A DNA stretch of 64,000 nucleotides from the NCBI RefSeq assembly GCF_963676685.1, contig NC_092344.1:120280001-120344000 (forward strand). The letters are read 5' to 3'. Both the position numbers and the translations under genes were made by a program. This document shows positions 9,137-61,763 of the stretch, piece after piece. This DNA is from Mytilus edulis (taxonomy: Eukaryota). Each line of letters begins with the position of its first letter. Positions within the stretch are counted from its first letter, which is position 1. The notes beneath the pieces were generated by a model that saw only the letters and a program-made list of their open reading frames with translations, did not search any database and was not told the origin of the DNA.

Positions 9137-9346
9137 TTATTTCATTTGGTCATTATATAATTCCTCTCTAACATCCATCAGAATTGTTCCCAGAAGATTG
9201 GTTCCGCGCCATTTTTCTTTGTTAAATGCATCTGGATTATCTGCCGCTAACCCGATTCCCCATTTCTCATCAAACGGACTAGCCTCTGCTAGTGTTTTGT
9301 TTCTGGTGTTTAGCAGTACGGCTTTGAGTTTTGGATTCTGTGAGAA
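9137..9346 (-). CDS. NADAR-domain protein 1, coding exon 3
   Basis: tttcag acceptor, then FSQNPKLKAVLLNTRNKTLAEASPFDEKWGIGL...WRGTNLLGTILMDVREEL-stop, containing the NADAR/YbiA EASPxDxxWG and GxNxLGxxLMxVR motifs. Confidence 0.93.
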   Translation of the reverse strand, partial: FSQNPKLKAVLLNTRNKTLAEASPFDEKWGIGLAADNPDAFNKEKWRGTNLLGTILMDVREELYNDQMK

Positions 9347-9439
9347 CTGAAAGAGAATTTTTAAAGAAAGAATAACATATTTTGTATTAGCTGTCTGTAA
9401 AATTATCATGATATATATAGAAAATAACAAGGCCAAACG

Positions 9440-9713
9440 CGTTTATGATCATTTTTGAAATTTACTGTTTGCTAAAGTATGAAATATTCGTAAAAGTTAG
9501 GATTTTTAATCCCAAGCATGGATAACCTATAAATTTTTGGGAGTTTTGGGTCCTCAATACTCTTTAATTTTATACTTGTTTGGCTTTCTAACTATTTTCA
9601 TATGAGTGTCACTGATGAATTCTTCGCTATGTACATGTTTGGCTTAAAACAATTTTTATCTGAGGGTCACTGGTGAGTCTAATCTAGACGAAACGAGCGT
9701 CTGCCGTATCAAA
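9440..9713 (+). repeat. Decayed retrozyme copy with mutated hammerhead (continues at 10889-10985 after an insertion)
   Basis: gtcactggtgagtctaatctagacgaaacgagcgtctgccgta (9666-9708) is a degenerate copy of the hammerhead at 36995-37041 in the opposite orientation. Confidence 0.7.
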
Positions 9714-10888
9714 AGAGGGACGAAAGATACCAAAGGGACAGTCAAACTCATAAATCCAAAACAAACTGACAACGCCATGGCTAAAAATGAAAAAGACAAA
9801 CAGAAAAACAATAGTACACACGACACAACATAGAAAACTAAAGAATAAACAACACGAACCCCACCAAAAACTAGGGGTGATCTCAGGTGCTCCGGAAGGG
9901 TAAGCAGATCCTCCTCCACATGTGGCACCCGTCGTGTTGCTTATGTGATTACAAATCCGGTAAATAGTCTAATTCGGTAGGTCATATTCATGAAAGGGAA
10001 GGGGATTGTAGTTACGACGTAAGGAACATATCCGATATCATTTGTGAAACGGTTATTCTATAACGGTCAACCAACTCGTGATGGCGTCCGTAAAATTTAC
10101 GAAGGGATGATTTCAACTTCACCATTTGGAACTCTTGGTTTAATAGCTTCCTTGTGAGCAGCAAACCTCTATCAAAGAAAATCATGATAGGAAATGCAAG
10201 CACGGGAATATCGTATCAATTGGGAGATATATACCCCGTATGCAGGTGCTGCTGGAATGTTGCTACTTAGAAATGGAAAGTTCACAATTGGAAAGCTGAA
10301 ATCATCTCTTTTGTCGTAAAGTTTTGTTTTCAACCGACCCTCATTGTCAATTTCTAGATGTAAGTCAAGATATGAAGCCGACTTAACTGTATCTGTAGTA
10401 TCCTTTATCTCTAGTTCGATTGGATAGATGCGTTCCACATAGTCACCAAATTTTGAATTGTTTAGTGAAAGAACATCATCTATATAGCGGAACGTAGAGT
10501 TAAAGGATATTGCTAACTTCTTATCTTTCTTCCTAAGAAGTTCCTGCATGAAGTCAGCCTCATAATAATAAAGAAACAAGTCGGCGAGTAGAGGTGCACA
10601 GTTTGTTCCCATTGGAATGCCGACAGTCTGTTGAAAAACACGTCCTCCGAACGTAACAAATATGTTGTCGATCAAGAAATCAAGCATCTTGATAATATCA
10701 GTTTCAGAGAATTTTTTGTTTGAATCAGAGTGATTCTTTACAAAGTAGGATTTATCCCTCCCTAAGACAAGATACTTGTATCTACGTTGGCCATTCTTTT
10801 TTATGAAGCAAAGGAATACCAACTCTTTCAATTTGTCTTTTAGTTTGGAATGTGGAATACTTGTGTACAGAGTAGAAAAGTCAAATGT
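9714..10888 (-). mobile_element. 5'-truncated Penelope-like retroelement; RT pseudogene fragment
   Basis: ORF 10172-10831 has GIPMGTNCAPLLADLFL, FRYIDD, YLDLHL and LYDKRDDF (Penelope-type RT motifs); a frameshift near 10175 leads into DRGLLLTRKLL...; the upstream frame continues DFSTLYTSIPH to ~10888. Confidence 0.88.
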
Positions 10889-11004
10889 TCAAATTATAAT
10901 ACTGGTACCTTTGGGTACTATTATATAGACGAAACGTGCGACTGTCGTATCAAATTATAAGCCTGGTATGTTTGATAACTATTTAGGGTCTATATAAATA
11001 TTGT

Positions 11005-12223: not shown

Positions 12224-12384
12224 CTTCGCAATATTTCCCTGTTTCACAATTTCTTCACATTTACTATTCCACAACGGTCTATCAAAGCTAGATAATTTTG
12301 CTGCCTGTCGACCCAAATCCTTTTGTTCTTCCGGGTCTGTTGATGTCATAACTCTTTCTGTTAACTTTTCATCATCACACAAAC
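12224..12384 (-). CDS. NADAR-domain protein 1, coding exon 2
   Basis: ttcttctataaaag acceptor and GTAAAT donor; encodes (R)LCDDEKLTERVMTSTDPEEQKDLGRQAAKLSSFDRPLWNSKCEEIVKQGNIAK with the PxxxKxLGR motif; phases 1/0 join exons 1 and 3 in frame. Confidence 0.9.
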
Positions 12385-13475: not shown

Positions 13476-13827
13476 GTGTTTTATGGTACATCATAAACTG
13501 CTCTGCACAGTTAAACGTCAGTTCGTCCACTGTGAACATTGAATAATGCCACTGACTGAACACGGAGCCTTTCTGCCAGAATAGTACGAAATCTTTGTTT
13601 TCTTTTTCTGTAAATACTGGATCGCTGTATTTAGGTTTAAGAAAGTTTCCCATGTTCCTTTTTCCCCTATTGGGCCGCCGTCTAGATCCTTCGGAATGCT
13701 TTTGAACTTTTGGTTTCTTGTACGGTTTTTCTTTCTTATGATCTTGTTTTACACGCCCATCACCTCCTGGGTGTTTACCTCTTGTATGCTTTCTTTCCCG
13801 TTTATCTGAACTTAGTGCGTCACCCAT
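13476..13827 (-). CDS. NADAR-domain protein 1, coding exon 1 (spliced product 240 aa)
   Basis: ATG at 13827; K/R-rich N-terminus, then FVLFWQKGSVFSQWHYSMFTVDELTFNCAEQFMMYHKT; GTAAG donor at 13475-13471. Confidence 0.9.
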
Positions 13828-14550: not shown

Positions 14551-15116
14551 GTAATTTATGTTATTTGTTTCCGTCATACAATAATAAAGGATTGTTACCA
14601 AAGTTTTAAAATATGTCAACATTCGTAATGTTTAACTGTTTAGTATAGGAAATAAATGATACAAAATGAGTAATAAGGTAAAAAGTTAGACAACTTGAAT
14701 AGCAAATGAATTTAATGTAATTTAAAAATTACATTGGTGAAATGATGTTAGTTAGATTATTTTTTAATTTGATGTCAGAAACTATCATTTTTTTCTTTTT
14801 TTTTAATTTTTTCATTTTCAACCTATCTATCATGATTTAAAGACATATTGAGCATTGTAACTTACCTTAAGAAATATATTGCAAATACTTGATAGTATTG
14901 TGACAGATATTTGAACTACATTTTGGACATTGCTGACGTTACAATTATTAATTAAGACAGACATTGCTAAGCGGCCCAGTGGACACTACGGAGTTTTTCT
15001 GAGCTCTTGCAAAATTTAGATTTTTGAATCATTAGTAACGATAATTTGTCAAATTTCTGAAAGAACAGTATTTAAAACTATTAGTAACCATTATATGGTA
15101 CAATAACTTTGCTCTT

Positions 15117-16403
15117 TTGAGTCTTGGAATGACAAAATCATTGAATTTCGACAGTGCCAACTCAACTGTAAACAAAGAAAAAATGGCGGAAACATATTCA
15201 AAGGTAGTCCAAAATGGTAATAACAACGACATGAGTGTGAAACCAATTTTCTTATTGGAATCAGATATGTTTGGTCCAAAACCCTCTGACAAAGATTTCC
15301 TTTTGCATCACGAACTTTACAAAATAATTGGTCAACTCATACCCTCTTCCCATCTGAGAGCGCTTCAAAGAGTTCGAGGTATGTGGCGAGTCTACACACA
15401 GAGTGAAGACGATCGCAGCAAGCTTCTAATATCAGGAATTGTGGTAAGAGACCGTTTGGTGAATTTTTATTCACAAAACCCTAGATTCCAAGGTAGTGTA
15501 AACCCAGATCACGTTAAAATTCGAGTAAAAGACATTCCATGCTCGGCTGACGATGGTCAGATTACCTATTTCTTAGAGAATGCAGGGTGTAAAATACACA
15601 GATACTTTAGGGAGCGCATACGAGTTGATGGCTTAATAACAAACTGCCTATCAGGAGACCGAATATTTTATTGTGAACCGATGGAACATCCTTTTCCAAG
15701 ACAAGTAACAATAGGAAACTACAGAGCAACAATCTTACATAAAGGTCAGCCAACTAAAAACAGAGACGACATAGTTTGTAAAAAATGCCTCGAAAAGGGC
15801 CACTTCATCAGCAATTGTCCAAATGATTGGACATGTAATATATGTAAAAAATCTGGACACAAACAATCAGAATGTGAAGAGCCCTTTTCAGACAACAACA
15901 ATGAACATAATGAAAACGAATCAACAAACACTGATGATGACAACACAGATTCAGAAACTGATGACAATAACAATGATGAGGCTGCACATGCTCAACAACA
16001 TGAACCTGAAGTTGAACAAATGCAGGACATGCCTAACGAACAATCACAGGAAACGCCTACTCGTGATCTGAAGAAAACTCAAAACAAAAATTCACAAAAG
16101 GTACCTACTCATCAATCTCAACCTTCATTTCAATCAATCACCAATGAAGAGAATGACGAATATACAGGAGATGCAGCAACACCAAGTTCTAAAAAAGCTA
16201 AAAAAAAATCTGGTAAAAAGAAGACAACTTGTCAAAATGATTCGAAAGACGAAAAACAAAGTTCAATGCAACAATTTCTAGTTGAGAAACAAACCAGTGC
16301 AACCACTCCTGGAAATAAAGTCTCAAAAAGGTCTGCAACAACTCCTACAACGGACCTTTTCGATAGAGAGAATCAAACAACCAAACCAAAAACACAAAGT
16401 TAA
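15117..16403 (+). CDS. LINE ORF1p (gag-like, two CCHC zinc knuckles, acidic low-complexity C-terminus); true start probably ATG 15129 or 15183
   Basis: CKKCLEKGHFISNC and CNICKKSGHKQSEC (CX2CX4HX4C); position 5' of ORF2. Confidence 0.9.
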   Translation: MSLGMTKSLNFDSANSTVNKEKMAETYSKVVQNGNNNDMSVKPIFLLESDMFGPKPSDKDFLLHHELYKIIGQLIPSSHLRALQRVRGMWRVYTQSEDDRSKLLISGIVVRDRLVNFYSQNPRFQGSVNPDHVKIRVKDIPCSADDGQITYFLENAGCKIHRYFRERIRVDGLITNCLSGDRIFYCEPMEHPFPRQVTIGNYRATILHKGQPTKNRDDIVCKKCLEKGHFISNCPNDWTCNICKKSGHKQSECEEPFSDNNNEHNENESTNTDDDNTDSETDDNNNDEAAHAQQHEPEVEQMQDMPNEQSQETPTRDLKKTQNKNSQKVPTHQSQPSFQSITNEENDEYTGDAATPSSKKAKKKSGKKKTTCQNDSKDEKQSSMQQFLVEKQTSATTPGNKVSKRSATTPTTDLFDRENQTTKPKTQS

Positions 16404-16418
16404 AAAGGAGAAATAAAC

Positions 16419-17698
16419 ATGTATAAACAATTATGTAGCTAACTCCTTTTTTTTTCTGTTGGTTTATCATCTCTATATACTTTTTTGCTTACAATGATTT
16501 GTTTGTATATATTTTTATTATTATTCTTACATATATGTATGACAAGCATATTCCTAAAGGTAAACAACCACCTTGAAGACAATGCTTTTTATGTAAATTT
16601 TAAAAAAAACAGTAAAAATACCAAAATATGTAGCGATGATTGTGATGGAATATTAGATTTCATACTTTCAAGAAGTAATAGAAAGAAGAGTAAAATAGAA
16701 AAGAACTGTAATGTTGTATGTTATAACATAATGTCAAAGAGTAATAGAAAAAAAAATGTATTGGTTTGTGTTATCAACTGGATCATGCAAATAATACACA
16801 CATAATTAAAGAATGTTCTTTAATAAACAGACCTATACACAATAAATATCTAATAATATTCCATAAATTTGCAATATCGATTCCTTTATGTATGTATTAT
16901 CATACTAGAAAGAACAGTTTTCAAACAAAATATAACTTCCAACAGTTTTACTGGAGTAAGAATCTCAAAATTCCAATCTTATGCAGCTGGGAAAATAAAT
17001 CCATGAATCAACCAGTAATCCAGCAACATTTAACTGCAGATCATAATTACATCTGGAAAAAAACACACTGTACATGTAAATTCGTTCGTATTAACTTTTG
17101 GCTTCAATATATTGCATCACTATACAAATACACGCACAGATATAGATACTGGGAAGGAATTCCTAGTCAAAATCCAGCAATAGTATTGCTCACACACGTA
17201 TGTATTCTTGTAAAAGTCTTCAGCATCACTAAATCCAAGAGTTTTAGTCTTCTTGTGAAACAAGAAAATTTATCCTGTTACCAAATGGTGTCGAATATAT
17301 CCGAAGTACCTACAAAAATAAAAACAAAATTGATACAATCAACTTCAACTAAAACAAAACATAGCAATATAAGTGCATTATTAGAACCAATAGAATTCAA
17401 CAGAACAAAAACAATTAATAGAAATTACATGAGCAAACTATGGCTATTTATAGATGTGGGAAAATCCCTACACAAATTATTTAAAACATGTACACCTTTC
17501 CTGAAATGGTGTCCAATTTTTAAGATAGATAAAATATATATAAAAGATCATGTATTTATTATATGTATAGTTATTATTATCATGTTAAATATACTGTTGT
17601 TCTTAATATATATATATATTTTCTTTACTATGCATGTTATTGTTGTTGTATACATGTATGTTTGTCAAATGTATTTAGTTTTAAAATACTCGCTTTAA
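16419..17698 (+). other. Putative additional hydrophobic ORF inside the LINE between ORF1 and ORF2 (one stop, one frameshift)
   Basis: 310 stop-free codons (16766-17698) in very AT-rich DNA; overlaps ORF 16485-16805 at an A9 run; hydrophobic N- and C-terminal segments. Confidence 0.5.
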
Positions 17699-17719
17699 GC
17701 TACAAAAAATATAAGAATA

Positions 17720-20700
17720 ATGAATAAAACTTTACATATCTGTTCCTTAAATTGTCAAGGACTAGGCCAAAAAGAAAAAAGAAATAGGCTTTATACATGG
17801 TTAAAATATCAAAAAACAGATATACTTTTTATCCAAGAAACTCATTTTGTTAAAGAAATAGAAAATAAAGTAAGTAATGAATATGACGCAGATATTTTTC
17901 ACAGTTTTGGCACAACACAATCAAAAGGAGTAGCTATATTTATTAAAAAAACAATAAACCCAAAGATAATTGATACTTTTACTGATCAAGAAGGTCGCAT
18001 AATTCTTGTAAATGTTGAAATAAACAACAACATATTTTCTTTAATAAATTTATATGCACCTAATGAGAAAAAAAAGCGAAACATCTTCTTTAAAAATGTA
18101 AATAAAATAATTGAAGAACATAGTCTCGGAATTTTAGTAGTAGGGGGAGATATGAATGAAACATTGAGTAGTACAGATAGAAAGAATAATAATAAAAAAA
18201 GAGAACAAAAAATTACAAATAGTTTGAAAACTTTAATAAAAACAAACAAACTAGAAGATATTTGGAGACAATTACATCCGAAACTATATCAATATACATG
18301 GAAACGTAAAAATAAAGACGATGAGGCAAGTAGAATAGATTATTTTCTAACGGGTAAGGAATTGAGAACTATGATAAAGTCTACAGATATAAGACCAGCC
18401 CTAATTTCTAGTACAGACCATCAGGCAATTTCATTGAAAATTAACATGTCCAATGATAATAAGGGTAAAGGGTTCTTTAAAATAAACAACAGCATACTAA
18501 CTGACAAATCTTATAAAGATAAAATAGAAAAAGTTATAGACTATTTTATACTTAAAAGCAATTACACTGAAAATTTATCACAACTATGGGACCTGTTTAA
18601 AATTGAAGTAAGAGAATCAACGATACAGTTTTGCAAAAATAAATCTAGGCAAAGGAAAAATGAAATTCAAAATTTGGAAAAAAAACTTCAAACATTACAG
18701 AAAAGAAAGGATAATAATAAACCAAGTGAAGTAGAAAAGAACGAAATCAATTTATTAGAAAGTGAGATAGAATCTCTTTATAGTTATAAAGCAAAAGGTG
18801 CACAAATACGTTCAAGAATAAAATGGATAGAAGAAGGGGAAAAGAATTCTAAATTTTTTCTAGGATTAGAGAAAAGTAGACAAACAAGAAAAAATATAAT
18901 AAATTTAAAAAACGATAAAGGGGAGATAATTACAAAACAATCAGAAATACTAAATTTAGAAAAGAAATATTATGAAAAGCTTTACACAAGCACTAAACCA
19001 GATAAAAATTTTATAAACACATATATTAAGGATACAAATATTAAACAATCATTAAGTAAAGAAGAAAGCAATTCTCTAAATGGACTTCTATCAACAGAAG
19101 AATGTACAAAATCAATTTTTCAAATGAAATTAAATAAATCCCCAGGCCTAGATGGACTCTCAGTAGAGTTTTATAGAGAATTTTGGGACAAATTAAAGAA
19201 TTATGCAATTCAAAGCTTTAATTATTGCTATAAAAAAGGAATGTTATCTGAATCACAAAAAATAGGCCTAATTTCTCTAATATTTAAAAAAGGAGACCCC
19301 ACTGAATTAGGTAATTACAGACCAATTACACTATTAAATGTTGATGTTAAAATTATTGCATATACATTAGCCCAAAGATTAAAACCTGTGATGTCAAAAA
19401 TTATCCACAGTGACCAAAATGGATACATTAAAAACCGTTATATAGGTTTTAATATACGTCAGATACAAGACATTATAGATCATGCAGAAAAGTTAAAAAT
19501 AGATGGAGCTATACTTTTTCTAGACTTTTCCAAAGCCTTTGATTCCCTAGAGTGGGAATTCATGTATCAATCACTAACAAAATTTGGTATAGAAAATTCT
19601 ATGTTAAGATGGGTCAAAACCTTGTATGCAGATATCAAGGCATGTATTTCTAATAATGGATGGATTTCAAGCCCACTGAATATTTTTAGAGGAATTCGAC
19701 AAGGATGTCCTTTAAGCGCCATTTTATTCGTCTTTGCAGTCGAAATATTAGCCTGTAGAATAAGAAACGACAATAATCTTAAGGGAATAAATATAAAGTT
19801 AGATGGAAAAACGCACAGCCTTATAATAAGCCAGTTAGCTGATGATACTACATTGTTTCTCTGCTCTAAAGATGAAATCTCTCAGTCATTTAATATAATT
19901 GAAGTATTTGGTTCTCTATCAGGACTTATTTTAAATCGAAGTAAAACTGAAGGATTAGGTTTTGGAAAATTAAAACATATTCAAGACAATTTTGAGAATA
20001 TTAACTGGAGCAAAGAGACTGTTAAAAGCCTTGGCATTCACTTTGGATATAATAAATCTCAATGTATGAATTTAAACATAGAAAAACAACTTCAAAAATC
20101 TGAAAAAATTCTTAACTCATGGAAAAAAAGAAAGCTAACAATGATCGGAAAAGTAACTGTCGTGAAATCTCTAGTTATACCAATATAACATATTTAGCTT
20201 CTGTAACTGATATCGACAAAAATTCACTATTTAAGTTTAAAAAAATGATTTATGAATTCATTTGGGACCATAAAAAAGAAAAAAATTAAAAGAAAAACAA
20301 TTAACATGAAAAAAACTGAGGGAGGACTTGGAATGATAGATATTGACAAGTTTATTAATGCAATAAAAATTAAATGGGTAAAAAGATTAATAGAAGGTGA
20401 ACAGTCAAATTGGAAAATTATTCCCACATTATACTTTAATCAATATGGATCAAATTTTTTAATATTTCACATGAATCTGGATAATTTAAAATCAATAAAT
20501 ATAAAAAACAACAAAATCCCTAATTTTTACTTTGAAATACTTAAAACCTGGGTAAAATATGGCGGTGGTCAAACTAATAAACCAGAAAACTTTAGAACCA
20601 TTAGACAACAAATTATATGGGGTAACAAATACATAAAGTTAAATGGGCACAGTTTAGTTTTTAATCATTGGATAAAAGACAACATAATCTATGTAAATGA

Positions 20701-21520
20701 CATAATTGATGACAGAGGAAGAATATCAAAAGAAAAAATACTCAATAAGTTAAAATGTAAAAGAAATTGGATTGCAGAAATAATACAAATAAGAAAGAGC
20801 ATACCAAATCATTGGAAAGATATATTACAAAAACAAAACTCATTAAAAACTATTGTTAATTGTAAAAAACAACTATGTTTAAAACAAGGCGCAATTATAT
20901 ATGATTTACAAAAAATTAATAATAAAGATATTTATGTCATCTTATCTAATGTAAATAAAGATATTCATATAGGGTTTACAAAATGGCGGAAAGAACTAAA
21001 TATAGATAAAATTCAACCAAAAATTAAATACACATTAAATTTTATTTTTAATTATTTAGAAGACAATAAATTAAAAATGGTTCGATGGAAATTATTACAT
21101 TATATACTACCTGTAGGTACACATCTTTTCACATGGAAAATTAAAAACGCCAATCTGTGTTCAGTGTGTGGGATACCAGATACTTATCAACACAATTTCA
21201 TGGAATGTACTTATTTTAAAGTTTTTTGGAATAAAATTTGTATTTTATTAAATAAGCTTCATATTGGTGAGCATATAGTTACTTTAAAACACTTAGTAGT
21301 AGGATATAAAATAGAAGAGGACTCATTAAATGATATTAATTATCTCCTGACAGTCATCCTATTCACTCTACACAAATGCAATTGTATTTCAAATAATAAA
21401 ATAAATCAAGTTAATGTTTATGAAATATTTAAACAAGAATTTAAATACAGATATCATCTGATGGAGTATAGAAATAAAACAATAAGTAAGATGCTTAAAA
21501 ATATTCAAAATTATATGTAA
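17720..21520 (+). CDS. LINE ORF2p: APE endonuclease, reverse transcriptase, C-terminal zinc motif; two compensating 1-nt indels near 20182 and 20280
   Basis: APE motifs SLNCQGL, IQETH, NLYAPN, GGDMN, SRIDYF, TDH; RT motifs KSPGLDG, YRPITLLN, LDFSKAFD, GIRQGCPLS, QLADD; CSVC..H..C. ORFs 17720-20188 and 20252-21520 are in the same frame. Confidence 0.93.
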
Positions 21521-32989: not shown

Positions 32990-34252
32990 TTATTTCGTAC
33001 CTAACTTTTCGATGTTATAAAGTTTAACATGGTTGCCATCGATTTCCGCTGCAAGAATTTTCAACTCTGGTTGGTAGGCAATATATCTCGGTCTTTTAAC
33101 TCTGCTGTCCTCGTCAAGGAGATGGTAAATCAATCCATCAGTTGTATTCATCTGATATATTCTGTTGACTTCACTGCTTGCCACGAACAGAATATTATTG
33201 AACATAACGATGCCCCGTGGACTCCTGACCTTCACTGACCAACATAAATTCCCCTTAAAATCAACACTGTGAATGGATTCATTTACAATATCTACAACGA
33301 ATACGGTCTTTTTCACAAAGTCTAGTGCGAGACGTATAGTATTGCCAGTGAATTGCCCAAAGCTTCTTGTATTTCCGGGTATGACAAACAACTCCTTTCC
33401 ACCCAATTCATAAATACGAATGGCACCATCTTCCCCTTCTCCACTCTCTACGGCAAAATGTTCCTTATGATATGCAATACTGTATGGTTTTTCTTTTACT
33501 TTGAATGTTTTATAAGTACGTATCTTATTATCAATTCTAAAAATTCTTATCTCCTTTTTATCAGCAATAGTAACCGCTATTAGATCATTTGGTGTGCTTG
33601 CAATACCTCTAGGATCGTCTTTCAGTTCTCTTGCCATTTCAAATTTTAGATCACGTTTGAATAGCTTCAAACTTCGATTTTTGTAATCAGCAACGACAAT
33701 TTTACCGTCAGACAGAATTGCTATTCCTCGGACTCGTGTAACTTCTTTATCAGCCGGAGCAGAGCTCATTAATTCATTCGCAAATTGTCCCCTAAATGGC
33801 CCGTTATCTTGTACTTGTGCTTGAAATGAGTCATCACGATGTTGAGTAAATGCCAGTGACCTGCGATTGTCGCTAACACTTTGACGATCGGAAACTACTG
33901 ATATGGTTTCATCTATTGGTAGTTGTTTAGCCGCGATTGCGATATGATGTTTCGTTGCTTTAAGTGACGAATGTTTGTTCGTACAGTTGGTACAAAGTAA
34001 CTGTTTGCAGTCGATACACAGACTTACTGCTGGTTCACCACAGTCATTACCACAATTGGCATTCACTGAGCTTAGATTTAAGTCGGTTATGTCGTGTGAT
34101 GCATCTACCAGGATATGTATGCGAGTAGACTTCAGTTTTCTGTGGTACAACGTGCAATCGTGACAAAATGCTTGGTCACAATTTGCACAATATACTTCTA
34201 AGGTTTCCGTAACTTCATCACATCCATCGCAGACTTTTGAAACTGTTGCCAT
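32990..34252 (-). CDS. TRIM-like protein A: two B-box zinc fingers plus NHL-like beta-propeller (420 aa, single coding exon)
   Basis: CDGC..CANCDQAFCHDCTLYH..H and CGNDC..CIDCKQLLCTNCTNKH..H; propeller blades VRGIAILSDGKIVVAD, PRGIA, PYSIAY, PRGIV, PRYIAY; ATG lies 2 nt after a catttag acceptor (34255). Confidence 0.9.
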   Translation of the reverse strand: MATVSKVCDGCDEVTETLEVYCANCDQAFCHDCTLYHRKLKSTRIHILVDASHDITDLNLSSVNANCGNDCGEPAVSLCIDCKQLLCTNCTNKHSSLKATKHHIAIAAKQLPIDETISVVSDRQSVSDNRRSLAFTQHRDDSFQAQVQDNGPFRGQFANELMSSAPADKEVTRVRGIAILSDGKIVVADYKNRSLKLFKRDLKFEMARELKDDPRGIASTPNDLIAVTIADKKEIRIFRIDNKIRTYKTFKVKEKPYSIAYHKEHFAVESGEGEDGAIRIYELGGKELFVIPGNTRSFGQFTGNTIRLALDFVKKTVFVVDIVNESIHSVDFKGNLCWSVKVRSPRGIVMFNNILFVASSEVNRIYQMNTTDGLIYHLLDEDSRVKRPRYIAYQPELKILAAEIDGNHVKLYNIEKLGTK

Positions 34253-37920: not shown

Positions 37921-39171
37921 ATGGAAGCTGCATCAACAGCTTGTGATGGCTGCGAAAAGGATGAAAAGGTAGAATCATTTTGCGTCAATTGTGAGCAGCT
38001 TTATTGCCCTGAGTGCACCGCTTATCATATGAAATGTAAAGCGACACGTTCCCACGTCTTATTAGATGCATCACATCTTGATACAGATATAACTCACGCT
38101 TCAACTGATGTCCAGTGTGGCAATGAATGCGGAGAGCAGGCAGTAGTTCTTTGTCTAGACTGTAAACAGTTACTTTGTGACAACTGTACACAGAAACATG
38201 CAAGGCTTAAAGCAACCAAAGAACATTATGCAATAACCGCGAAACAACTCGCGAGAGACGAAACAGCATCTTTAACTTCCTTTGGTGCTTACTCTGAAAG
38301 AACTTCTATAGTTTCACGTCCAAAGGAACTAGTGCATGCACAGGTTCAAGTTGAGAAAGGTCCACACTCGGGTATATTTGCACATGAGTTCATGAGTTCC
38401 GCTCCAGGAGACAAAGAAGTAACAAGAGTTCGTGGAATAGTAATTCTTTCCGATGGCAGAATTATTGTTGCCGATTATAAAAATCGGAGTTTGAAATTAT
38501 ATAGCAGTGAATTGAAATTTGAAATGGCAAAGGATATAAAAGAGGATCCAAGAGGAATGGCTGCTTCTGCTAACGATTTTGTAGTAGTCACTATTGCTGA
38601 TAAAAAGGAAATAAAAATATATAAAGTCGAACATAATAAGATACGTACTCACAAAACGATTAAAGTGAAAGAAAAACCTTACAGTATTGGTTATAATAAA
38701 GACCACTTTGCTGTTGAACACGGTGAGGGAGAAGATGGCACAATTCGTATTTATGATCAAAACATTAGAGAAATGTGTGTCATACCGGGTAATACCAGAC
38801 ACTTTGGACAATTCACTGGCAATACAATACGCCTTGCCTTAGATTATACAAAACAGGTCATATTTGTAATCGATATAGTAAAGGAGTCGGTTCACTGTGT
38901 CGATTTTAAAGGTGGTCTGATCTGGACAGTGAAAGTCGGAAGTCCTAGAGGAATTGTGTTCCACAACAATATTCTGTTTGTTGCCAGCAGTACAGAAAAC
39001 AAGATAATCCAGATGAATGCTGTCGATGGATTAGTTTACTCTATGTTAGACGAAGACAATAGAATTAAGCGTCCTCGTTACATTTCCTACAATCCTGATT
39101 TGAGGAAACTTGCTGTTGAAATCGACGGCAACCATATAAAGCTTTACAACATTATCAAATGTGACAAATGA
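37921..39171 (+). CDS. TRIM-like protein B: two B-box zinc fingers plus NHL-like beta-propeller (416 aa, single coding exon)
   Basis: Clear paralogue of 32990-34252 (shared DKEVTRVRGI, VADYKNRSLKL, GEGEDG, FGQFTGNTIRLALD, EIDGNH); ATG lies 2 nt after a T-rich ctgtag acceptor (37918). Confidence 0.92.
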   Translation: MEAASTACDGCEKDEKVESFCVNCEQLYCPECTAYHMKCKATRSHVLLDASHLDTDITHASTDVQCGNECGEQAVVLCLDCKQLLCDNCTQKHARLKATKEHYAITAKQLARDETASLTSFGAYSERTSIVSRPKELVHAQVQVEKGPHSGIFAHEFMSSAPGDKEVTRVRGIVILSDGRIIVADYKNRSLKLYSSELKFEMAKDIKEDPRGMAASANDFVVVTIADKKEIKIYKVEHNKIRTHKTIKVKEKPYSIGYNKDHFAVEHGEGEDGTIRIYDQNIREMCVIPGNTRHFGQFTGNTIRLALDYTKQVIFVIDIVKESVHCVDFKGGLIWTVKVGSPRGIVFHNNILFVASSTENKIIQMNAVDGLVYSMLDEDNRIKRPRYISYNPDLRKLAVEIDGNHIKLYNIIKCDK

Positions 39172-41344: not shown

Positions 41345-42235
41345 TCAGATGACACCTATCAATAAATGTACACCTTACAATCATTTAATACATCAAATAG
41401 TGTAAACCTAAGAACAACAGACTAAAACACAAAAACTATAACCACTGAACGATGAAAATAAGGTCATGGTTAAATGACACCTGCCAGTTGGACATGTACA
41501 CCTTACAATCCTTCCATACATCAAATAGTGTAAACCTATTGCATACAGTATAAGAACAACAGACCAAAACACAAAAACTATAACCACTGAACGATGAAAA
41601 TTAGGTCATGGTTAGATGACACCTGCCAGTTGGACATGTATACCTTACAATCCTTCCATACATCAAATAGTGTAAACCTATTGCATACAGTATAAGAACA
41701 ACAGACCAAAACACAAAAAATATAACCACTGAACGATGAAAATTAGGTCATGGTTAGATGACACCTGCCAGTTGGACATGTACACCTTACAATCCTTCCA
41801 TACATCAAATAGTGTAAACCTATTGCATACAGTATAAGAACAACAGACCAAAACACAAAAACTATAACCACTGAACGATGAAAATAAGGTCATGGTTAGA
41901 TGACACCTGTCAGTTGGACTTGTACACCTTACAATCCTTCCATACATCAAATAGTGTAAACCTATTGCATACAGTATAAGAACAACAGACCAAAACACAA
42001 AAAATATAACCACTGAACGATGAAAATTAGGTCATGGTTAGATGACACCTGCCAGTTGGACATGTACACCTTACAATCCTTCCATACATCAAATAGTGTA
42101 AACCTATTGCATACAGTATAAGAACAACAGACCAAAACACAAAAACTATAACCACTGAACGATGAAAATAAGGTCATGGTTAGATGACACCTGCCAGTTG
42201 GACATGTACAACCTACAATCCTTCCATACACCAAG
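41345..42235. repeat. 142-bp tandem repeat, ~6 copies
   Basis: accactgaacgatgaaaa at 41441, 41583, 41725 and onward. Confidence 0.95.
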
Positions 42236-43371: not shown

Positions 43372-43596
43372 TTAATCTATTCTTTCGAAGAATCCTGCTT
43401 CCTTTAACAACTCGTCTCTCACTTCTGTCAGTATTTTTCCCAGTAGATTTTTTCCATTCCATGTTTCCTGGTTTAGAGCCTCTGGGTCATCTGATCGAAG
43501 TCCTATTCCCCAAATCTTATCATTTTTACTGGCCAATATCAAAGTCTTTGGGTATGTCTTAATCAGGTGTTCTTTTAACTCCTTATTCTGGGAATA
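43372..43596 (-). CDS. NADAR-domain protein 2, coding exon 3
   Basis: tttttacag acceptor; YSQNKELKEHLIKTYPKTLILASKNDKIWGIGLRSDDPEALNQETWNGKNLLGKILTEVRDELLKEAGFFERID-stop (absent from the ORF track). Confidence 0.9.
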   Translation of the reverse strand, partial: YSQNKELKEHLIKTYPKTLILASKNDKIWGIGLRSDDPEALNQETWNGKNLLGKILTEVRDELLKEAGFFERID

Positions 43597-45769: not shown

Positions 45770-46575
45770 TTATAATGTCTGACTACCCTCTTTATACATC
45801 TTCACGTACAGTATTCTAAACATTTCTGAAATAAATTGCCTTACAAATGGTGACATCCTTTATTTTCTTTCCATGTAGGGAATTCCAATATATCTGGAAT
45901 ACTTTATCTTGGCCATGGTGGTCGCTCTTAACTATTTCCTCAAATGTAGAATCCAACAAAATACCTTAGCAAAGGTGGCATTCTTCATTATTTCATCACG
46001 TGCAAAATCTACAACCTCGAATTAATTTACCTTACACATGGTGGCGCACTTTACTATAGGTCTGCGCGCGTAGAATCCCACAACCTCAGGAATAATTTTC
46101 CATACAATGATGGCGCTCTTTACTATAGGTCTGCAGTACAGAAGCCCAGGCCATGTTGGCGCTCTTTACCATTTCTTCACGTACAGAAGCCAACAACTTC
46201 TGGAATAACTTACCGTGACTTTTTTGGTGTTCTTTTCAGTTTTTTTTATGCAGAATGCAACAGGTGTGCAGGTACAGAACCCCACAACTCTTAAATAACT
46301 TACATTGGCAATGCATGATTGTGGCGTTCTTTACTATAGGCCTTCATGTACAGAGACCCACAACTCCTGGAATAATTCATCGTGGCAATGGAGGCGCTCT
46401 TTATCATTACCTCACGTGCAGAAGCTCACAGCTTTTGGAATAACTTACCTTAGACATAGTGGCGCTCTTTACTATTTTTTCAATTACAGAGTCCCACAAC
46501 TTGTAGAAATACTCACCTTGGCCATGGTGGCGCTCTTCACAATTTCCTCACGTACAGAATCCCATAACTTCTGAT
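45770..46575 (-). repeat. Degenerate ~68-bp tandem array derived from the 3' end of NADAR2 exon 2 plus splice donor (~11 units)
   Basis: Exon-end equivalents at 46517, 46449, 46381, 46304, 46214, 46031, 45965, 45908 and 45840; recurring ggcgctctttacta and gtacagaa.cccacaac. Confidence 0.85.
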
Positions 46576-46668
46576 CAAACTTTGGAATTAACCTTCCAAG
46601 TCTTTTCTGTTCTGCAGGATTCTTTTCTGACATTATTGCTTCAGATATCCAGTCACATTTTAGTATTT
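46517..46668 (-). CDS. NADAR-domain protein 2, coding exon 2
   Basis: ttttgttttag acceptor and GTGAGT donor; (K)ILKCDWISEAIMSEKNPAEQKRLGRLIPKFDQKLWDSVREEIVKSATMAK. Confidence 0.9.
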
Positions 46669-46847
46669 CTAAAACAAAAGTTTATATTGTTCATTATTTT
46701 TCTTTTTTTCAGAAGCCAATCAATCGATGTTTTTTTTCAAAAATGACTTTGTCAAGGAGGCAACCAGAGCAACAGCATAGGTTTAAAAATTTCGAACCAT
46801 TCATTCAGCTTGAGCCAAATCATGTCAGACAGTTCACATATTGGTAT

Positions 46848-47011
46848 CAGTGGCGGATCTAGAACTTTTCCTAAAGGGGGGGGGGGGGGGGGGGGGGGCG
46901 CTGACTGACCTAAGATGGGCCCTCTCCAGTCATGCTCCAATGATTCCCTGTATAATCAACCAAATTTTTTCACGAAAGGGGAGCCTGCCCCCCCCCCTGT
47001 ATCCGCCTATG
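46848..47011. mobile_element. Short MITE-like element with poly-G/poly-C tracts
   Basis: Imperfect inverted ends cagtggcggatctag and ctgtatccgcctatg; no clear TSD. Confidence 0.5.
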
Positions 47012-47187
47012 GACCATATCAAATACAATCATTCGTTTACCTTCTACTAGTAATAACATGGCCTATAAGAAGTATAAAGTATATCAATATTCATAAGAAT
47101 ATAAGAATATAAATGGGATAGCTGCAGGAAAAATTAATGGAATACATTCAATTGTTATAAACCAAGGACGAAAATTCACATACTTAC

Positions 47188-47533
47188 TGGCTTTTCTAAA
47201 CATCATGTATTGTTCTGCACAATTAAATTTGCGACCATCAACTGAGAACTCTGATGGATACCATTGACTAAATGGCGAACTTTGTCTAAAGAAATACACA
47301 AAGCTATCTGTTTCTTTGTGCCCAAAGTCCCCACGTGGTTTGTTCATGACTGATTTGTGTCCACTTCCTGTACGTTTATTGTAAGTTGGTGAAGAACTCC
47401 ATCGGTCCCAGTCTCTGTATCCCCAGTTCATATTAGAGTAACCCCAGTTACCATAACAACCAGGAAACATATACGCGTTATATCCACCAGTCTGGAGTCT
47501 GTTATTACGTCGTTTGTCTGTATATGCCGTCAT
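47188..47533 (-). CDS. NADAR-domain protein 2, coding exon 1 (spliced product 240 aa)
   Basis: ATG directly after a tttgcag acceptor; FVYFFRQSSPFSQWYPSEFSVDGRKFNCAEQYMMFRKA; GTAAGT donor at 47187; probable 5' UTR exon ending at 47598 (GTAAGT). Confidence 0.9.
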
Positions 47534-52920: not shown

Positions 52921-54134
52921 ATATTAACCTATGACATGGTTCATACAAAATGAAACTGAAGACATGCTACATCTCCCCAGGGGGAGGGCACTTCCTACAT
53001 ACAAGGTGACAGGACGTGTCGCTGGAAAATGTTACATTTTACTTACGCATTACATAGGTATTCATTTTTAAAATCTAAATTATATGAAAACTAAGGGTGG
53101 GGTAACAGAACTCCAGCGGCAACCCCTATCAAATAAGTAATGAGGTAGCAACCCCCCCCCCCCCCCCCCCGTCACTTGAAATGCCTGTGCTTCCCCTCCC
53201 CCTTGAGAGATCAGTTTTGAACATACAAAATAACGGGTCAATATACACATGTCAACTTAAGTCTTCAGTAAAGATGAAAGTCATTTTTGAGATTTGTAAT
53301 AGGTGCTTTAGAACTGGTGTTTGACCGCTGGAAATAATCTGGAAGGGATGTTTTATTTTTAAATCAATCTTTACAATGTCATAATGATGTATGACCTTTC
53401 AAATTTAAATTAAATTCGGTCTTAATTACCTTTGTGGTAGTTTTGTCCTTTCGTTCTCATGCACGATGCTGTGAAGGGGAGTTTTAGAAAGGGGAGTGGA
53501 ACTGATATTGTGACTTCAAGAACGTCTCATGGTGGAAGCTGAAAACAACACGTCGTGTGAAACTATCAGGTTCCGATAATCAGATCTCGATAATTAGATA
53601 TGAGTAAATGTATGATATTTTACTGTCGATTACAAGTATTTGTAACTACAAAAGTGAATTAAAAAGAAGGACGACCGTTGACATTAAGAATTATGCGAAA
53701 TATCTTTTATTTTCCAAGATATGCACGGCTTTGCTTTGCTTTTGTTTTTGTGTTCCTTTGGTTTTTTTTATTTTGTTTTTCTAAGTTTTTTGTCTTTCTG
53801 TTTGTTTTTATTTTGGGGTTGGGTGGTATTTTTTTTATTATTTTTTTTAGATTTTTAGGGGATGTAAAGAGTTGCTTTGAAAATGGTGGAAAGTGTAGCT
53901 GATTTTTTTTTTAATAATGAATTAGATCACATGTCATCATTAGAAACATATCATGTGGAATTGTGTCAGTATCCAATATGTGTATAATTTTTGACAAACG
54001 ATAATATAGTTCATTTATAGATTTTTTTAAGTAACCCCCCCCCCCCCCCCCACACACACACACTAATGCGAAAAAAGGAGCTTGTCGTCGTTTCCCAAAC
54101 ACGAAATGCATTCTTCGATGAATATTTAAAACAT

Positions 54135-55145
54135 TTATTTCAGTATGTATACTAAAGAAATGTATCCTGTTGAACTTACTTTAAATAAAGCTAATACTAA
54201 CAATGACCACTGCCCTTTCCTCGATCTTGATATCTATATCACTAACGGAAAGCTTAATACTAAAATTTATGATAAAAGAGATGATTTTTCATTTCCTATA
54301 GTTAACTATCCATTTTTAGATGGTGACGTTCCATTGTCACCATCTTACGGTGTTTATATATCTCAACTTGTACGATTCGCTCGTGTATGTAACAATGTTT
54401 TAGATTTTAACGAGAGAAATTTATGTATTACTGAAAAATTATTACACCAGGGTTTTCGATATCACAAACTAGTCAAAACATTTACTAAATTTTATCATCG
54501 GTATAAGGACATCATTCGTAAATATAGCTCAACATGCAGACTTCTTATACGTTCAGGTATTTCACATCCAATTTTTTATGGAAATATTCTTTATAAAGCA
54601 CAAAAATGTCAGTATTCACCTCAGAAACTAACAAAACCTTAAAATAGACTTATCAAGAAGGGATATAGTTACGATACTGTTGTCAGGTCACTAAATATTG
54701 CTTATTTTTGCGTTAATATTGATTCACTTATAGGGTCTTTGCATCGGAACTAAACACATTTATTAAAAAAACAGTTGTTGGCATGACACGGGTTATGTTC
54801 TTCTCATATATGTTATGATGGTATGATACTAAACCCCTAACGGGAAGGATTGTGCCTGATATTCATATGATGAAATCATAATCTTTCAATCAGTTTAAAT
54901 GAGGTCTGGAGCTGGCATGTCAGTTTACTGCTAGTAGTCTGTTGTTATTTATGTATTATTGTCATTTTGTTTATTTTCTTTGGTTACATCTTCTGACATC
55001 AGACTCGGACTTCTCTTGAATTGAATTTTAAATGTGCGTATTGTTATGCATTTACTTTTCTACATTGGCTAGAGGTATAGGGGGAGGGTTGAGATCTCAT
55101 AAACATGTTTAACCCCGCCGCATTTTTGCGCCTGTCCCAAGTCAG
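54135..55145 (+). mobile_element. 5'-truncated Penelope-like retroelement, second family (RT C-terminus)
   Basis: ORF 54145-54642 (FLDLDI, KIYDKRDDFSFPIVNYPFL, YGVYISQLVRFARVC) is homologous to the 10172-10831 RT. Confidence 0.85.
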
Positions 55146-58402: not shown

Positions 58403-58621
58403 CTATATTGATGGCTTCAGAAAATCCTTTAATAGTTCATCTCTGACGTCTGTTATAATTTTCCCTAATAGATTGAATCCTCTCCAGTTATTCACATCGA
58501 ATATTTTAGGGTCGTCTGCTGCCAAACCTATTCCCCAAACCTGATCATGTGGACTTGCTTCTACTAAAAGCTTTGGATACGTGTTTACCAGTTCCTCTCT
58601 CAATTTTTCATTTTGGGAAAA
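58403..58621 (-). CDS. NADAR-domain protein 3, last coding exon
   Basis: tttcag acceptor; FSQNEKLREELVNTYPKLLVEASPHDQVWGIGL...WRGFNLLGKIITDVRDEL. Confidence 0.92.
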   Translation of the reverse strand, partial: FSQNEKLREELVNTYPKLLVEASPHDQVWGIGLAADDPKIFDVNNWRGFNLLGKIITDVRDELLKDFLKPSI

Positions 58622-59050
58622 CTGAAATTAAAATCAAGTTGAATATTAATTACATCAAATAATTCTGTTTGTAAAGATGCATTTTGCTTACTTTTCCTCA
58701 TTCAATAAATTGTACATGTATAAATCAAATTAATGAGTAAAAATAAATATTAGCAATGAGATGATAAACAGAAAACATATGAATACAAATTCAAAGTACT
58801 CTTTATAAGAATGAAAACAAATATGCAAAATTGGCAATATTAATATAGCACAGAAAGAAGTAAAAGTAAGTACATTTGTACTAGTATATGAAAGGAATTA
58901 CTTTTCTAATGACATACACCTTTGCTATAGGTCATGACAAACATCTGTGTCAAAATTGAGTGACCAGTGAGTTGTATGGAAAGTATATAAGAGACATTTG
59001 TGATTTACTATTCTGTAGTGTGAAGCAATGTGATAAAGAAAACGCTTCTC

Positions 59051-61420
59051 AGAACTCGTAGTGTGAACAAGTAGCAAGGTTATATGACTAAAGCTAGTCT
59101 GAACTCGTACTGCGAACAAGTAGAAAGGTTATATGGCTAAAGCTACTCACAACTCGTAGTGTGAACAGGTAGCAAGGTTATATGGATAAAGCTAGTCAGA
59201 ACTCGTACTGCGAACAAGAAGCAAGATTATGTTGCTAAAGCTAGTCAGAACTCGTACTGCGAACAAGTAGCAAGGTTATATGGCTAAAGCTAGTCAAAAC
59301 TCGTAGTGCGAACAAGTATCAAGGTTATATGGCTAAAGTTAGTCAGACCTCGTAGTGCGAACAAGTGGCAGGGTAATAAGGCTAAAGTAAGTCAGAACTC
59401 GTAATTCGAACCAGTAGCAAGGTTATATGGCTAAAGATAGTCAGAACTCGTACTGTGAACAAGTAGCAAGGTTATATGGCTAAAGTTAGTCAGAACTCGA
59501 AGTGTGAACAAGGAGAAAAATTATATAACTAAAGCTAGTCAGAACTCGTACTGTGAACAAGTACTAAGGTTATATGGCTAAAGATAGTCAGAACTCGTAG
59601 TGGGAGTTAGTAGCAAGGTAATATGGCTAAAGCTAGTCAGAACTCGTAGTCAGTGGGAGTAAGTAGCAAGGTTATATGGCTAAAGCTAGTCAGAACTCGT
59701 AGTCAGTGGGAGTAAGTAGCAAGGTTATATGGCTAAAGCTAGTCAGAACTCGTAGTGGGAACAAGTACTAAGGTTATATGGCTAAAGCTAGTCAGAACTC
59801 GTAGTGGGAGTTAGTAGCAAGGTAATATGGCTAAAGCTAGTCAGAACTCGTAGTCATTGGGAGTAAGTAGCAAGGTTATATGGCTAAAGTAAGTCAGGCC
59901 TCATAATGGTAGTAAGAAGCAAGGTTATATAGCTAAATCTAGTCAGAACTCGTACTGCGAACAAGTGTCAAGGTGAAATGGCTAAAGTTAGTCAGACCTC
60001 GTAGTGCGAACAAGTGGCAGGGTAATAGGTCTAAAGTAAGTCAGAACTCGTAATTCGAACCAGTAGCAAGGTAAGATGGCTAAAGATAGTCAGAACTCGT
60101 ACTGTGAACAAGTAGCAAGGTTATATGGCTAAGATAGTCAGAACTCGTACTGTGAACAAGTAGCAAGGTTATATGGCTAAAGTTAGTTAGAACTCGTAGT
60201 GCGAACAAGGAGCAAGATTATATGGCTAAAGCTAGTCAGAACTCGTAGTGGGAGTAAGTAGCAAGGTTATATGGCTAAAGCTAGTCAGAACTCGTCGTGG
60301 GAACAAGTAGCAAGGTTGTATAGCTAAAGCTAGTCAAAACTAGAACTGTGAACAGGTAGCAATGTTATATGGCTAAAGCTAGTCAGAACTCGTAGTGGGA
60401 ACAAGTAGCAAGGTTATATGGCTAAAGTAAATCAGGCCTCCTAGTGGGAGTAACTAGCAAGGATATAGTTAAATCTAGTCAGAACTCGAACTGTGAACAA
60501 GTAGCAATGTTAAATGGCTAAAGTTAGTCAGACCACGTAGTGCGAACAAGTGTCAAGGTGAAATGGCTTAAGTAAGTCAGACCTCGTAGTGCGAACAAGT
60601 GGCAGGGTAATAGGTCTAAAGTAAGTCAGAACTCGTAATTCGAACCAGTAGCAAGGTAAGATGGCTAAAGATAGTCAGAACTCGTACTGTGAACAAGTAG
60701 CAAGGTTATATGGCTAAGATAGTCAGAACTCGTACTGTGAACAAGTAGCAAGGTTATATGGCTAAAGTTAGTTAGAACTCGTAGTGCGAACAAGGAGCAA
60801 GATTATATGGCTTAAGCTAGTCAGAACTCGAAGTGGGAGTAAGTAGCAAGGTTATATGGCTAAAGCTAGTCAGAACTCGTCGTGGGAACAAGTAGCAAGG
60901 TTATATAGCTAAAGCTAGTCAGAACTAGAACTGTGAACAAGTAGCAATGTTATATGTCTAAAGCTAGTCAGAACTCGTAGTGGGAACAAGTAGCAAGGTT
61001 ATATGGCTAAAGTAAGTCAGGCCTCCTAGTGGGAGTAACTAGCAAGGATATAGATAAATCTAGTCAGAACTCGAACTATGAACAAGTAGCAATGTTAAAT
61101 GTATAAAGCTAGTCAGAACTCGTAGTGGGAACAAGTAGCAAGGTTGTACGACTAAAGCTAGTCAGAACTCGTAGTGGGAACAAGTAGCAAGGTTGTGCGA
61201 CTAAAGCTAGTCAGAACTCGTAGTGTAAACAAGTAGCAATGTGATATATATAAAGCTAGTCAAAATTCGTAGTGTTAAGAAGTAGCAATGTGATATTGCT
61301 AAAGCTAGTCAGATCTTGTAGTGGGAACAAGTGCTTTAGCTATTTAACCTTGCTACTTGTTCACACTACGAATTCTGACTAGCTTCAGTAAAACCACTTT
61401 GTCACTTGTTCACACTATTG
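59051..61420. repeat. 49-bp satellite, ~46 copies, plus ~2 inverted copies at 61333-61420, in the NADAR3 intron
   Basis: Unit AGAACTCGTAGTGGGAACAAGTAGCAAGGTTATATGGCTAAAGCTAGTC; inverted copy gctttagctatttaaccttgctacttgttcacactacgaattctgact. Confidence 0.95.
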
Positions 61421-61608
61421 ACTTATACGTAAAAATGTTGTATTACCTTCCTACTGATCCATATATATTTATATGTATTCCTATCTTAGCGGTAATGACT
61501 TGTATTGCTGTTTGTATACACTGTAGATCAAACTTAGTCTTTTTTTATTTAAATTTAAAATTATACTTACTTTTGCTGTATTGTCTACCTAAATACATCA
61601 CGACTTAC

Positions 61609-61763
61609 TTTTGCCATATTGCCTTTCTTAACTATCTCTTCACGTTTTTCCTCCCATGCTACATAATCAAGATCACAGATGCTTCTTCCATAGCTCTTCA
61701 TATCGCTAGGATCGTCCAGTGACAATATAACTTTGTCTAGTTTTGCTTCATTTTTAGAAAATT
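61609..61763 (-). CDS. NADAR-domain protein 3, middle coding exon (exon 1 not found in window)
   Basis: cattttag acceptor and GTAAGT donor; FSKNEAKLDKVILSLDDPSDMKSYGRSICDLDYVAWEEKREEIVKKGNMAK; same phases as the paralogues. Confidence 0.88.

Follow-up and report, generated by a model that had tools for sequence, protein, structure and literature searches.

What does a mussel do with a row of NADAR genes? The window that we analysed, a stretch of 64,000 nucleotides from Mytilus edulis, contains three of them, which the original prediction took for an old, domesticated family that could reverse the ADP-ribosylation of nucleic acids, possibly as part of an immunity locus. Animals do not make riboflavin, as that prediction also noted. 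We therefore ask whether the genes are real and expressed, how large and how old their cluster is, whether their active sites are intact, and which of several functions best accounts for these features.

Gene structure and expression

The three genes (A, B and C) lie on the minus strand at the predicted coordinates (Table 1). Their introns are all GT-AG, in phase 1 and then phase 0, and fall in the same alignment columns; the NADAR cores are 48-54% identical in pairwise comparison. The RNA evidence consists of raw runs chosen by species label, and junction matching covers genes A and B. In three of four runs the RNA of gene B joins 43596 to 46517 and 46668 to 47188 exactly as predicted; the join 9346/12224 of gene A is likewise found as predicted in three of four runs, and the 1091-nt intron of gene A is spliced out in three of four. 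The claim of three co-oriented paralogues with shared intron positions and phases and clean splice sites is thus confirmed.

The products of A and B are each 240 amino acids long and that of C, including the exon beyond the window, 344. Gene A has no internal stop, and its model is identical in sequence to protein P0075. The description of the genes as having open frames is correct for A in this respect, but it hides the loss of the catalytic glutamate from B. Spliced RNA, together with purifying selection on the cluster genes (computed on listed variants), rules out pseudogenes or chance reading frames.

Table 1. Coordinates of the NADAR and B-box/NHL features in the window and just beyond its end.
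Feature	Position	Strand	Remarks
NADAR gene A, coding exon 1	13476..13827	-	basic, disordered 74-aa N-terminus and domain start; Glu109, Lys116
NADAR gene A, exon 2	12224..12384	-	Lys139, Arg143, Trp156
NADAR gene A, exon 3	9137..9346	-	catalytic Glu192 at 9286-9284; Asp197, Trp200, stop
NADAR gene B, coding exon 1	47188..47533	-	72-aa N-terminus rich in Gly/Tyr/Trp/Asn/Arg, with inferred start codon; Glu107, Lys114
NADAR gene B, exon 2	46517..46668	-	splice-confirmed by RNA
NADAR gene B, exon 3	43372..43596	-	splice-confirmed by RNA
Gene B codon 187	43534..43536	-	Leu (TTG) where catalytic Glu expected
NADAR gene C, coding exon 1	65893-65233 (extended coordinates, locus L036)	-	1.2-1.9 kb past window end
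NADAR gene C, exon 2	61609..61763	-	inside window
NADAR gene C, exon 3	58403..58621	-	catalytic Glu293 at 58561-58559
B-box/B-box/NHL gene 1, single exon	32990..34252	-	Pfam; no RING match
B-box/B-box/NHL gene 2	37921..39171	+	Pfam; divergent from gene 1

Size, age and surroundings of the cluster

A cluster of three describes the window correctly, but the cluster itself is larger: nine exon-3 matches lie at C1:120.27-120.39 Mb, and the cluster comprises seven complete genes, an eighth broken by a gap in the assembly, and a single orphan exon over about 120 kb. Mytilus thus has a tandem cluster of at least eight NADAR genes. Core identity among the paralogues is 41-68% and orthologues are present in other Mytilus species, which together rule out an assembly duplication. 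A transposon-borne origin of the copies is ruled out as well: introns interrupt them, and the LINE at 15045-21517 includes none of them. The same genome also has intronless NADARs, of a different type from the cluster genes.

The family is indeed old, as had been proposed: relatives occur across molluscs, in scallops, oyster, Solemya, Dreissena, abalone and Babylonia. Its domestication, in the sense of a horizontal origin, is unsupported by our tree, which has no root and weak deep support. Our IQ-TREE phylogeny is unrooted and leaves out SCO5665, AqNADAR, YbiA, DarG1 and the viral NADARs; a FastTree phylogeny of 270 domains agrees with it on A, B and C, and its deep nodes are unsupported. Among papers screened by title and start of abstract, a set that most subscription papers fall outside, we found none on a mollusc NADAR cluster.

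The two other genes in Table 1 are about 71% identical over their NHL part. The name TRIM-like suits their two B-boxes and NHL propeller, but RING gave no match in either (among nine and seven Pfam families listed, respectively), though a further exon may lie upstream. Because of this, and because the B-box/NHL family has at least 92 matches in the genome, the argument from these neighbours to an immunity locus is weak.

Domain identity and active site

The profile search (DUF1768/NADAR) suggested with the original prediction bears out the identification: an orthologue of A, P0001, matches Pfam NADAR (PF08719) with 164.5 bits, and the third exons of B and C do so with 72.3 bits each (cut-off 35.1). 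RefSeq names one A orthologue 'irg-1-like', an automatic label only. The predicted structure of A, in which residues 81-240 reach a pLDDT of about 97, resembles YbiA in being helical with two small sheets. Its best Foldseek match is the NADAR of P. nicotianae, 8BAU (E 2.9e-12), followed by YbiA, 2B3W (6.4e-9), and only these two of 31 hits reach E <= 0.001.

The equivalents of P. nicotianae E43, K50, K75, R79, W89, D130 and W133 are kept in all seven complete paralogues, and that of the catalytic E125, on the last strand, in six; Glu192 of A and Glu293 of C align with it. Judged by this alignment, A and C retain the residues needed for hydrolysis of guanine-ADP-ribose. Cys takes the place of R93 in A, D, F, G and H, which counts against the activity proposed below; it is also the commonest letter at this position (92 of 270 related domains). 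The catalytic Glu is absent from 30 of the 270, all of them from proteins with at least two matched stretches.

Outside the domain the paralogues have disordered and differing N-termini of 72 to 535 amino acids. That of A carries a net charge of +14, that of D is the longest and rich in Lys, Arg and Ser, and that of B is rich in Gly, Tyr, Trp and Asn. Exon 1 of A, searched alone against the PDB, gave no match.

Gene B

Gene B has Leu187 at the catalytic position and no acidic residue two positions upstream in sequence. The leucine is unchanged in RNA contigs X1 and X3, from RNA of two species labels. Since E167D and E167Q each abolish the activity of SCO5665 (PMC12945103), B is predicted to be inactive. 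It is likely a transcribed pseudo-enzyme, whose product likely binds the ADP-ribose mark instead of removing it. Protein searches with exon 3 (13 hits among 82 candidates) or exon 1 (2 of 14) returned no full-length B orthologue. Gene B would be a natural catalytic knock-out among expressed paralogues, and a NADAR that does not cleave would be a candidate probe for the detection of guanine-ADP-ribose.

Proposed function

Our preferred reading, which we hold tentatively and at somewhat below an even chance, is that A and C erase ADP-ribose from guanine, and probably from cytosine, likely as damage left by microbial toxins, and that B only binds the mark. A and C would cut the bond in DNA and in RNA. 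By analogy with characterised relatives, Glu192 of A would act as in an N-glycosidase, attacking the distal ribose or activating water there, while Lys116, Arg143, Trp156 and Trp200 would hold the pyrophosphate. With less support, we suggest that the differing N-termini may route the paralogues to different compartments or substrates, and that the damage most likely comes from ADP-ribosylating toxins of microbes.

All NADARs assayed in PMC12945103, including AqNADAR of a sponge, removed G-ADPr, and members of the NADAR/YbiA family, AqNADAR among them, also removed C-ADPr. Table S2 of that paper places the M. galloprovincialis protein VDI02763.1, an orthologue of gene E of this cluster, in the same family as AqNADAR and SCO5665. 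The idea of an animal eraser is supported for A and C, which retain the residues, but it probably does not extend to B and is not new, because the sponge enzyme had already been shown to act on both bases. NADARs with other jobs share the in-vitro activity on G-ADPr, which counts against our reading here, and Schuller et al. point out that NADARs which stand free may have other targets in the cell. The rescue of DarT1 toxicity that had been proposed as a check is unreliable, as active NADARs often fail it (PMC11125620).

A role in defence, which has less support than erasure, may be suggested by analogy. In C. elegans, P. aeruginosa induces irg-1, a DUF1768 (NADAR) gene (PMC3527274), and PMC12945103 cites work in which ladybirds survived infection less well once a NADAR had been knocked down. 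In worms, translation is inhibited by ToxA (PMC7707567).

Alternative explanations

The writer of the mark may be the mussel's own rather than a microbe's, since a Mytilus homologue of CARP-1 exists on paper. The NADARs would then protect the mussel against, or reset the marks of, its own CARP-1-like guanine ADP-ribosyltransferase, and B would be the reader in an endogenous, reversible system. By the text and Table S1 of PMC12945103, most homologues of CARP-1 are from bivalves, one of them being M. galloprovincialis VDI51142.1; ScARP homologues in Streptomyces are always accompanied by a NADAR (PMC12945103), and the mussel cluster is both expanded and old in molluscs. However, the transferase activity of VDI51142.1 is putative, and the review passage that lists activity names six clam species and no mussel. 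No transferase was recognised among the long reading frames of the window, as originally stated, nor among those of the 264 kb read. Profiles PF22596, PF01375, PF24494 and PF02917 have no match in the genome, a result that is uninformative because the controls were silent (0 of 14 genomes each) and because CARP-1 shares no more than 12% identity with ScARP (PMC12945103). We consider this explanation unlikely but credible. Its fuller form, in which molluscs combine a CARP-1-like writer, an old cluster of NADAR erasers routed to separate compartments by swapped disordered tails and a dead reader in B, seems decidedly less probable; if true, G/C base ADP-ribosylation would for the first time have an endogenous writer-reader-eraser system in an animal.

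It is about equally improbable that the proteins are RNA-processing or RNP factors like SNA-3, the three-NADAR protein of C. elegans that works in trans-splicing. The fold would then bind nucleotides, the N-termini would target, and hydrolysis would be secondary. The basic or low-complexity N-termini of A, B and D agree with this, as does the maintenance of B without a glutamate that other related domains also lack; but six of the seven complete paralogues keep every catalytic residue despite the divergence of their cores.

More doubtful again is a role in clearing damaged N-glycoside metabolites or small derivatives of ADP-ribose, as opposed to modified nucleic acids. Passages of PMC9503650 propose such clean-up for many NADARs from gene context, and the substrates of YbiA are small riboflavin intermediates; yet the closest solved relative is of the nucleic-acid-active 8BAU type, and the basic N-termini would fit nucleic-acid binding. 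Damage control in the riboflavin pathway, after the automatic label 'riboflavin biosynthesis protein' of scallop and abalone relatives, is scarcely tenable, as the absence of riboflavin synthesis is borne out by an exon-wise search in which GTP cyclohydrolase II (RibA, PF00925) has no genome match (control 10 of 14).

We return, then, to erasure by A and C with B as a binder. The cluster adds further members to a known kind of enzyme and may as such be no more than a commonplace expansion; what would be new is the disarmed copy and, possibly, a writer of the mussel's own to pair with the erasers. With a CARP-1 homologue on record and at least eight small, expressed NADAR paralogues, Mytilus is a system to which existing assays are applicable.

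Comparison with known systems

AqNADAR and SCO5665 (PMC12945103) belong to the same family as the cluster in the published table, through the gene E orthologue, and A and C keep their catalytic Glu as well as the rest of the site; in contrast, the mussel has a tandem cluster, long and unrelated disordered N-termini, and one copy with Glu replaced by Leu. The P. nicotianae NADAR 8BAU (PMC11543638) is the best match in sequence (E 8.7e-11) as well as in fold, and A and C have equivalents of its E125 and of the seven other residues listed with it above. Identity is only about 29%, however, R93 is replaced by Cys in A, and the mussel proteins have an extra disordered N-terminus and no insertion after the WGIG motif.

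DarG1 of DarTG1 and E. coli YbiA have the same fold and likely cut the same bond. The mussel site has Glu or Leu where that of DarG1 has Asp, with no adjacent toxin gene among the long reading frames of 264 kb; unlike in the case of YbiA, there is no riboflavin pathway in the genome by the RibA search. The irg-1 and ladybird genes are, like those of the mussel, animal NADAR-domain genes, and are tied to antibacterial responses; recent horizontal transfer is the origin described for the ladybird genes, whereas the mussel genes are intron-bearing and mollusc-wide. SNA-3, likened here by description, differs in having three domains in one chain and in acting as a trans-splicing factor, and it offers a precedent for an animal NADAR-domain protein with a role outside toxin defence.

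Gene models and expression

The window, AT-rich animal DNA at 33% G+C, yields three NADAR genes, A, B and C, on six-frame reading and self-tblastn; all lie on the minus strand. Their introns are all GT-AG, the first in phase 1 and the next in phase 0, and fall in identical alignment columns; of the two introns of gene C, one alone lies fully inside the window. The Pfam NADAR profile matches all five scanned exons of B and C, and also a whole orthologue of A. The original prediction of three NADAR genes with common introns is upheld, except that the cluster is larger than it supposed.

Features of the cluster (window numbering, carried past either end where marked "extended")
Feature	Position	Strand	Remarks
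Orphan copy of gene A exon 3	-11011, extended		94% DNA identity to A
Third B-box/NHL gene	-1456 to -416, extended		
Tandem array	2516-4555		84 bp
Gene A exons	13827-13476, 12384-12224, 9346-9137	-	240 aa, no internal stops
Reverse-transcriptase fragment	10175-10888	-	common repeat, within gene A intron 2
LINE	15045-21517	+	CCHC ORF1; endonuclease/reverse transcriptase ORF2, broken near 20185-20249; upstream of gene A
Tandem array	28039-28570		53 bp
Tandem array	41409-42234		142 bp
Gene B exons	47533-47188, 46668-46517, 43596-43372	-	240 aa, no internal stops
Reverse-transcriptase fragment	54130-54639	+	same common repeat
Gene C exons inside window	61763-61609, 58621-58403	-	
Gene C coding exon 1	65893-65233, extended	-	past window end; full product 344 aa
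Gene D		+	697 aa
Gene E	adjoining assembly gap 83032-83131, extended		exon 3 only here
Genes F, G, H			416, 541 and 424 aa

The model of gene A is identical to a named Mytilus edulis protein (P0075, XP_071149529.1), with orthologues at 90-92% identity in M. galloprovincialis, M. trossulus, M. californianus and M. coruscus. Spliced transcripts, whose absence was to count against the prediction, fit the predicted exon ends of A and B. In gene B, 8 reads of raw RNA run X21 and 66 of X24 span the join 43596/46517, and 11 and 54 respectively span 46668/47188. An 850-nt contig from X3 crosses both joins; X1 yields an exon-3 piece only. For gene A, X22, X24 and X14 contain the join 9346/12224, and X24, X2 and X14 show removal of the 1091-nt intron. 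Of the coding differences listed, which are the best-supported part of the full set and come from runs under two species labels, 11 of 19 are silent for A (pN/pS 0.18, binomial p 0.0003) and 6 of 12 for B (pN/pS 0.24, p 0.018), against about 20% expected. A, B and C are real genes, and spliced RNA shows that A and B are expressed.

At the start of intron 2 of gene B (46060-46516), the 3' end of exon 2 is repeated in tandem as decayed units of about 68 nt; some carry their own GT donor, and the RNA showed the first donor only. Most of gene C intron 2 is taken up by some 46 tandem copies of a 49-bp unit (59049-61332).

Extent and age of the cluster

A genome-wide PF08719 search, the profile check originally proposed, returned 32 matches, nine of them of the exon-3 type and all nine in C1:120.27-120.39 Mb. 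The order, from reading 264 kb around the window, is orphan A exon 3, third B-box/NHL gene, A, LINE, B-box/NHL pair, B, C, D, E exon 3 by the assembly gap, F, G and H. Both introns are common to all seven complete cluster genes, whose cores are 41-68% identical. Named M. edulis proteins match F and H exactly, and E is whole in other Mytilus assemblies. The orphan exon and the third B-box/NHL gene are traces of local duplication. The orphan (L034, extended -11217 to -10984) also takes in part of intron 2, and the third B-box/NHL gene (L035) is 81% identical to that at 37921-39171. Gene F (L038) has 416 aa here, and three records from other Mytilus sequences run to 459 aa; the frames differ after the NADAR domain (3' end, extended ~86470), by polymorphism or an assembly indel. 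Two further intron-bearing NADAR genes, on chromosome C11 (L016/L025, 36.60 Mb; L030, 9.51 Mb), appear to be broken at the cluster's same two positions.

The products of both genes flanked by the NADARs combine two B-boxes with an NHL propeller and give no RING match, which qualifies their description as a TRIM-like pair. The idea of an immunity locus drawn from these neighbours is weak: their family has at least 92 matches genome-wide, and although three close copies lie inside the cluster, nothing shows a functional tie to the NADARs.

In M. coruscus a single contig carries the orthologues of A, E and G, as does a single contig in M. californianus. Relatives occur in Pecten, other scallops, Saccostrea, Solemya, Dreissena, Haliotis and Babylonia. 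Two Pecten proteins with consecutive accession numbers lie on one contig, one D-like and the other near F/G/H, and Dreissena has several relatives on one contig; adjacency outside Mytilus is taken from accession order and the length of the contigs. An IQ-TREE analysis covering 45 selected domains puts A, B and C in a single clade (95/92, starred), joins E-H at 86/88, and pairs D with a Pecten protein at 87/45; the tree is unrooted, leaves 18 of 42 inner branches open, and has YbiA, DarG1, AqNADAR and viral NADARs, some of them named in the proposed phylogeny, outside its sampling. From the mollusc-wide relatives and the tree, therefore, the family is old in molluscs, as was predicted; with the tree unrooted, its origin may be vertical or horizontal. 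Some proteins (P0101 from Haliotis, P0102, P0105, P0110, P0165) have several tandem NADAR domains each, many devoid of both conserved glutamates; abalone P0101 has seven in 4240 aa.

Active site and the probably disarmed copy

The gene A orthologue matches the Phytophthora nicotianae NADAR structure 8BAU (E 8.7e-11) better than YbiA, 2B3W (9e-6), and an AlphaFold model of A (94-row alignment), confident over 74-240 and disordered before, again matches both. To place the 8BAU residues that PMC11543638 names, we used a two-residue offset, which fits eight named positions. E43, K50, K75, R79, W89, D130 and W133 are retained in all seven complete paralogues; at the R93 position, B and C have Arg and the others Cys. 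The Glu of E125 persists in six of the seven; gene B has Leu187 there (TTG, 43536-43534, minus strand), giving LASK in place of EASP, with no acid two residues upstream. Of 270 related domains, 240 have Glu here; the remaining 30 all come from proteins in which at least two stretches matched.

The full exon-3 difference lists of the X1 and X3 contigs, under two species labels, contain none at the Leu187 codon, and an assembly error is therefore ruled out. In SCO5665, a Streptomyces coelicolor NADAR, even E167D kills activity (PMC12945103); we therefore predict that B is a maintained pseudo-enzyme. The frames of A and B are open as first described, but that of B lacks the catalytic Glu. Its retained pyrophosphate residues suggest that B could bind the mark.

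Discussion

Guanine-ADPr hydrolysis has been demonstrated for DarG1 and the oomycete NADAR (PMC11543638), NADAR activity reaches RNA too (PMC11833690), and sponge AqNADAR takes off G- and C-ADPr (PMC12945103). By analogy, A and C most likely hydrolyse the N-glycosidic bond joining ADP-ribose to the base; since all tested intact NADARs are active, we would confidently expect activity of both in vitro. DarT1 rescue can fail even with active NADARs (PMC11125620).

The cluster would then shield the nucleic acids of a filter feeder against transferase toxins. That the writer is microbial is a tentative reading, at somewhat below even chances; defence against actinomycete toxins is proposed in PMC12945103, which also cites an immune role for ladybird NADARs, and C. 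elegans irg-1, a DUF1768 gene, is pathogen-induced (PMC3527274). The mussel's own CARP-1-like enzyme is a less likely writer. Table S1 of PMC12945103 includes a CARP-1 homologue, M. galloprovincialis VDI51142.1, and that paper leaves endogenous G/C-ADPr undecided. Our four-profile search for a writer gave no matches, with controls likewise silent. Riboflavin damage control is unlikely because the genome has no RibA match (control 10/14).

The genome also holds dispersed intronless NADARs of another type (L011, L012 and L013 on C1, C4 and C6; L006, L015, L028; L017, L018, L019, L023; L010). They have His at the cluster's catalytic Glu position, which is reportedly typical of phage NADARs (PMC11125620). 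Near-identical copies occur across chromosomes and either adjoin SGNH/GDSL hydrolase and OTU-like ORFs or are fused to them; some lie within ORFs of 1377-2307 aa, and all are probably carried by mobile DNA elements. An oyster Tx1 LINE carries NADARs (PMC12477816), but the neighbours of the Mytilus copies differ.

Molluscs are among the published NADAR holders, and SNA-3 is noted in the same survey (PMC11125620). Table S2 of PMC12945103 includes M. galloprovincialis VDI02763.1 (P0249); this is the gene E orthologue in a truncated model, and its contig also carries F and H orthologues. The candidate erasers proposed originally are thus probably right in kind but not novel as animal enzymes, the sponge activity being published (PMC12945103). 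The enzyme family and its animal activity are known already, one cluster member is tabulated (PMC12945103), and the cluster adds members to that family; as far as the literature searched goes, its size and age, the swapped disordered N-termini and the disarmed B are new.
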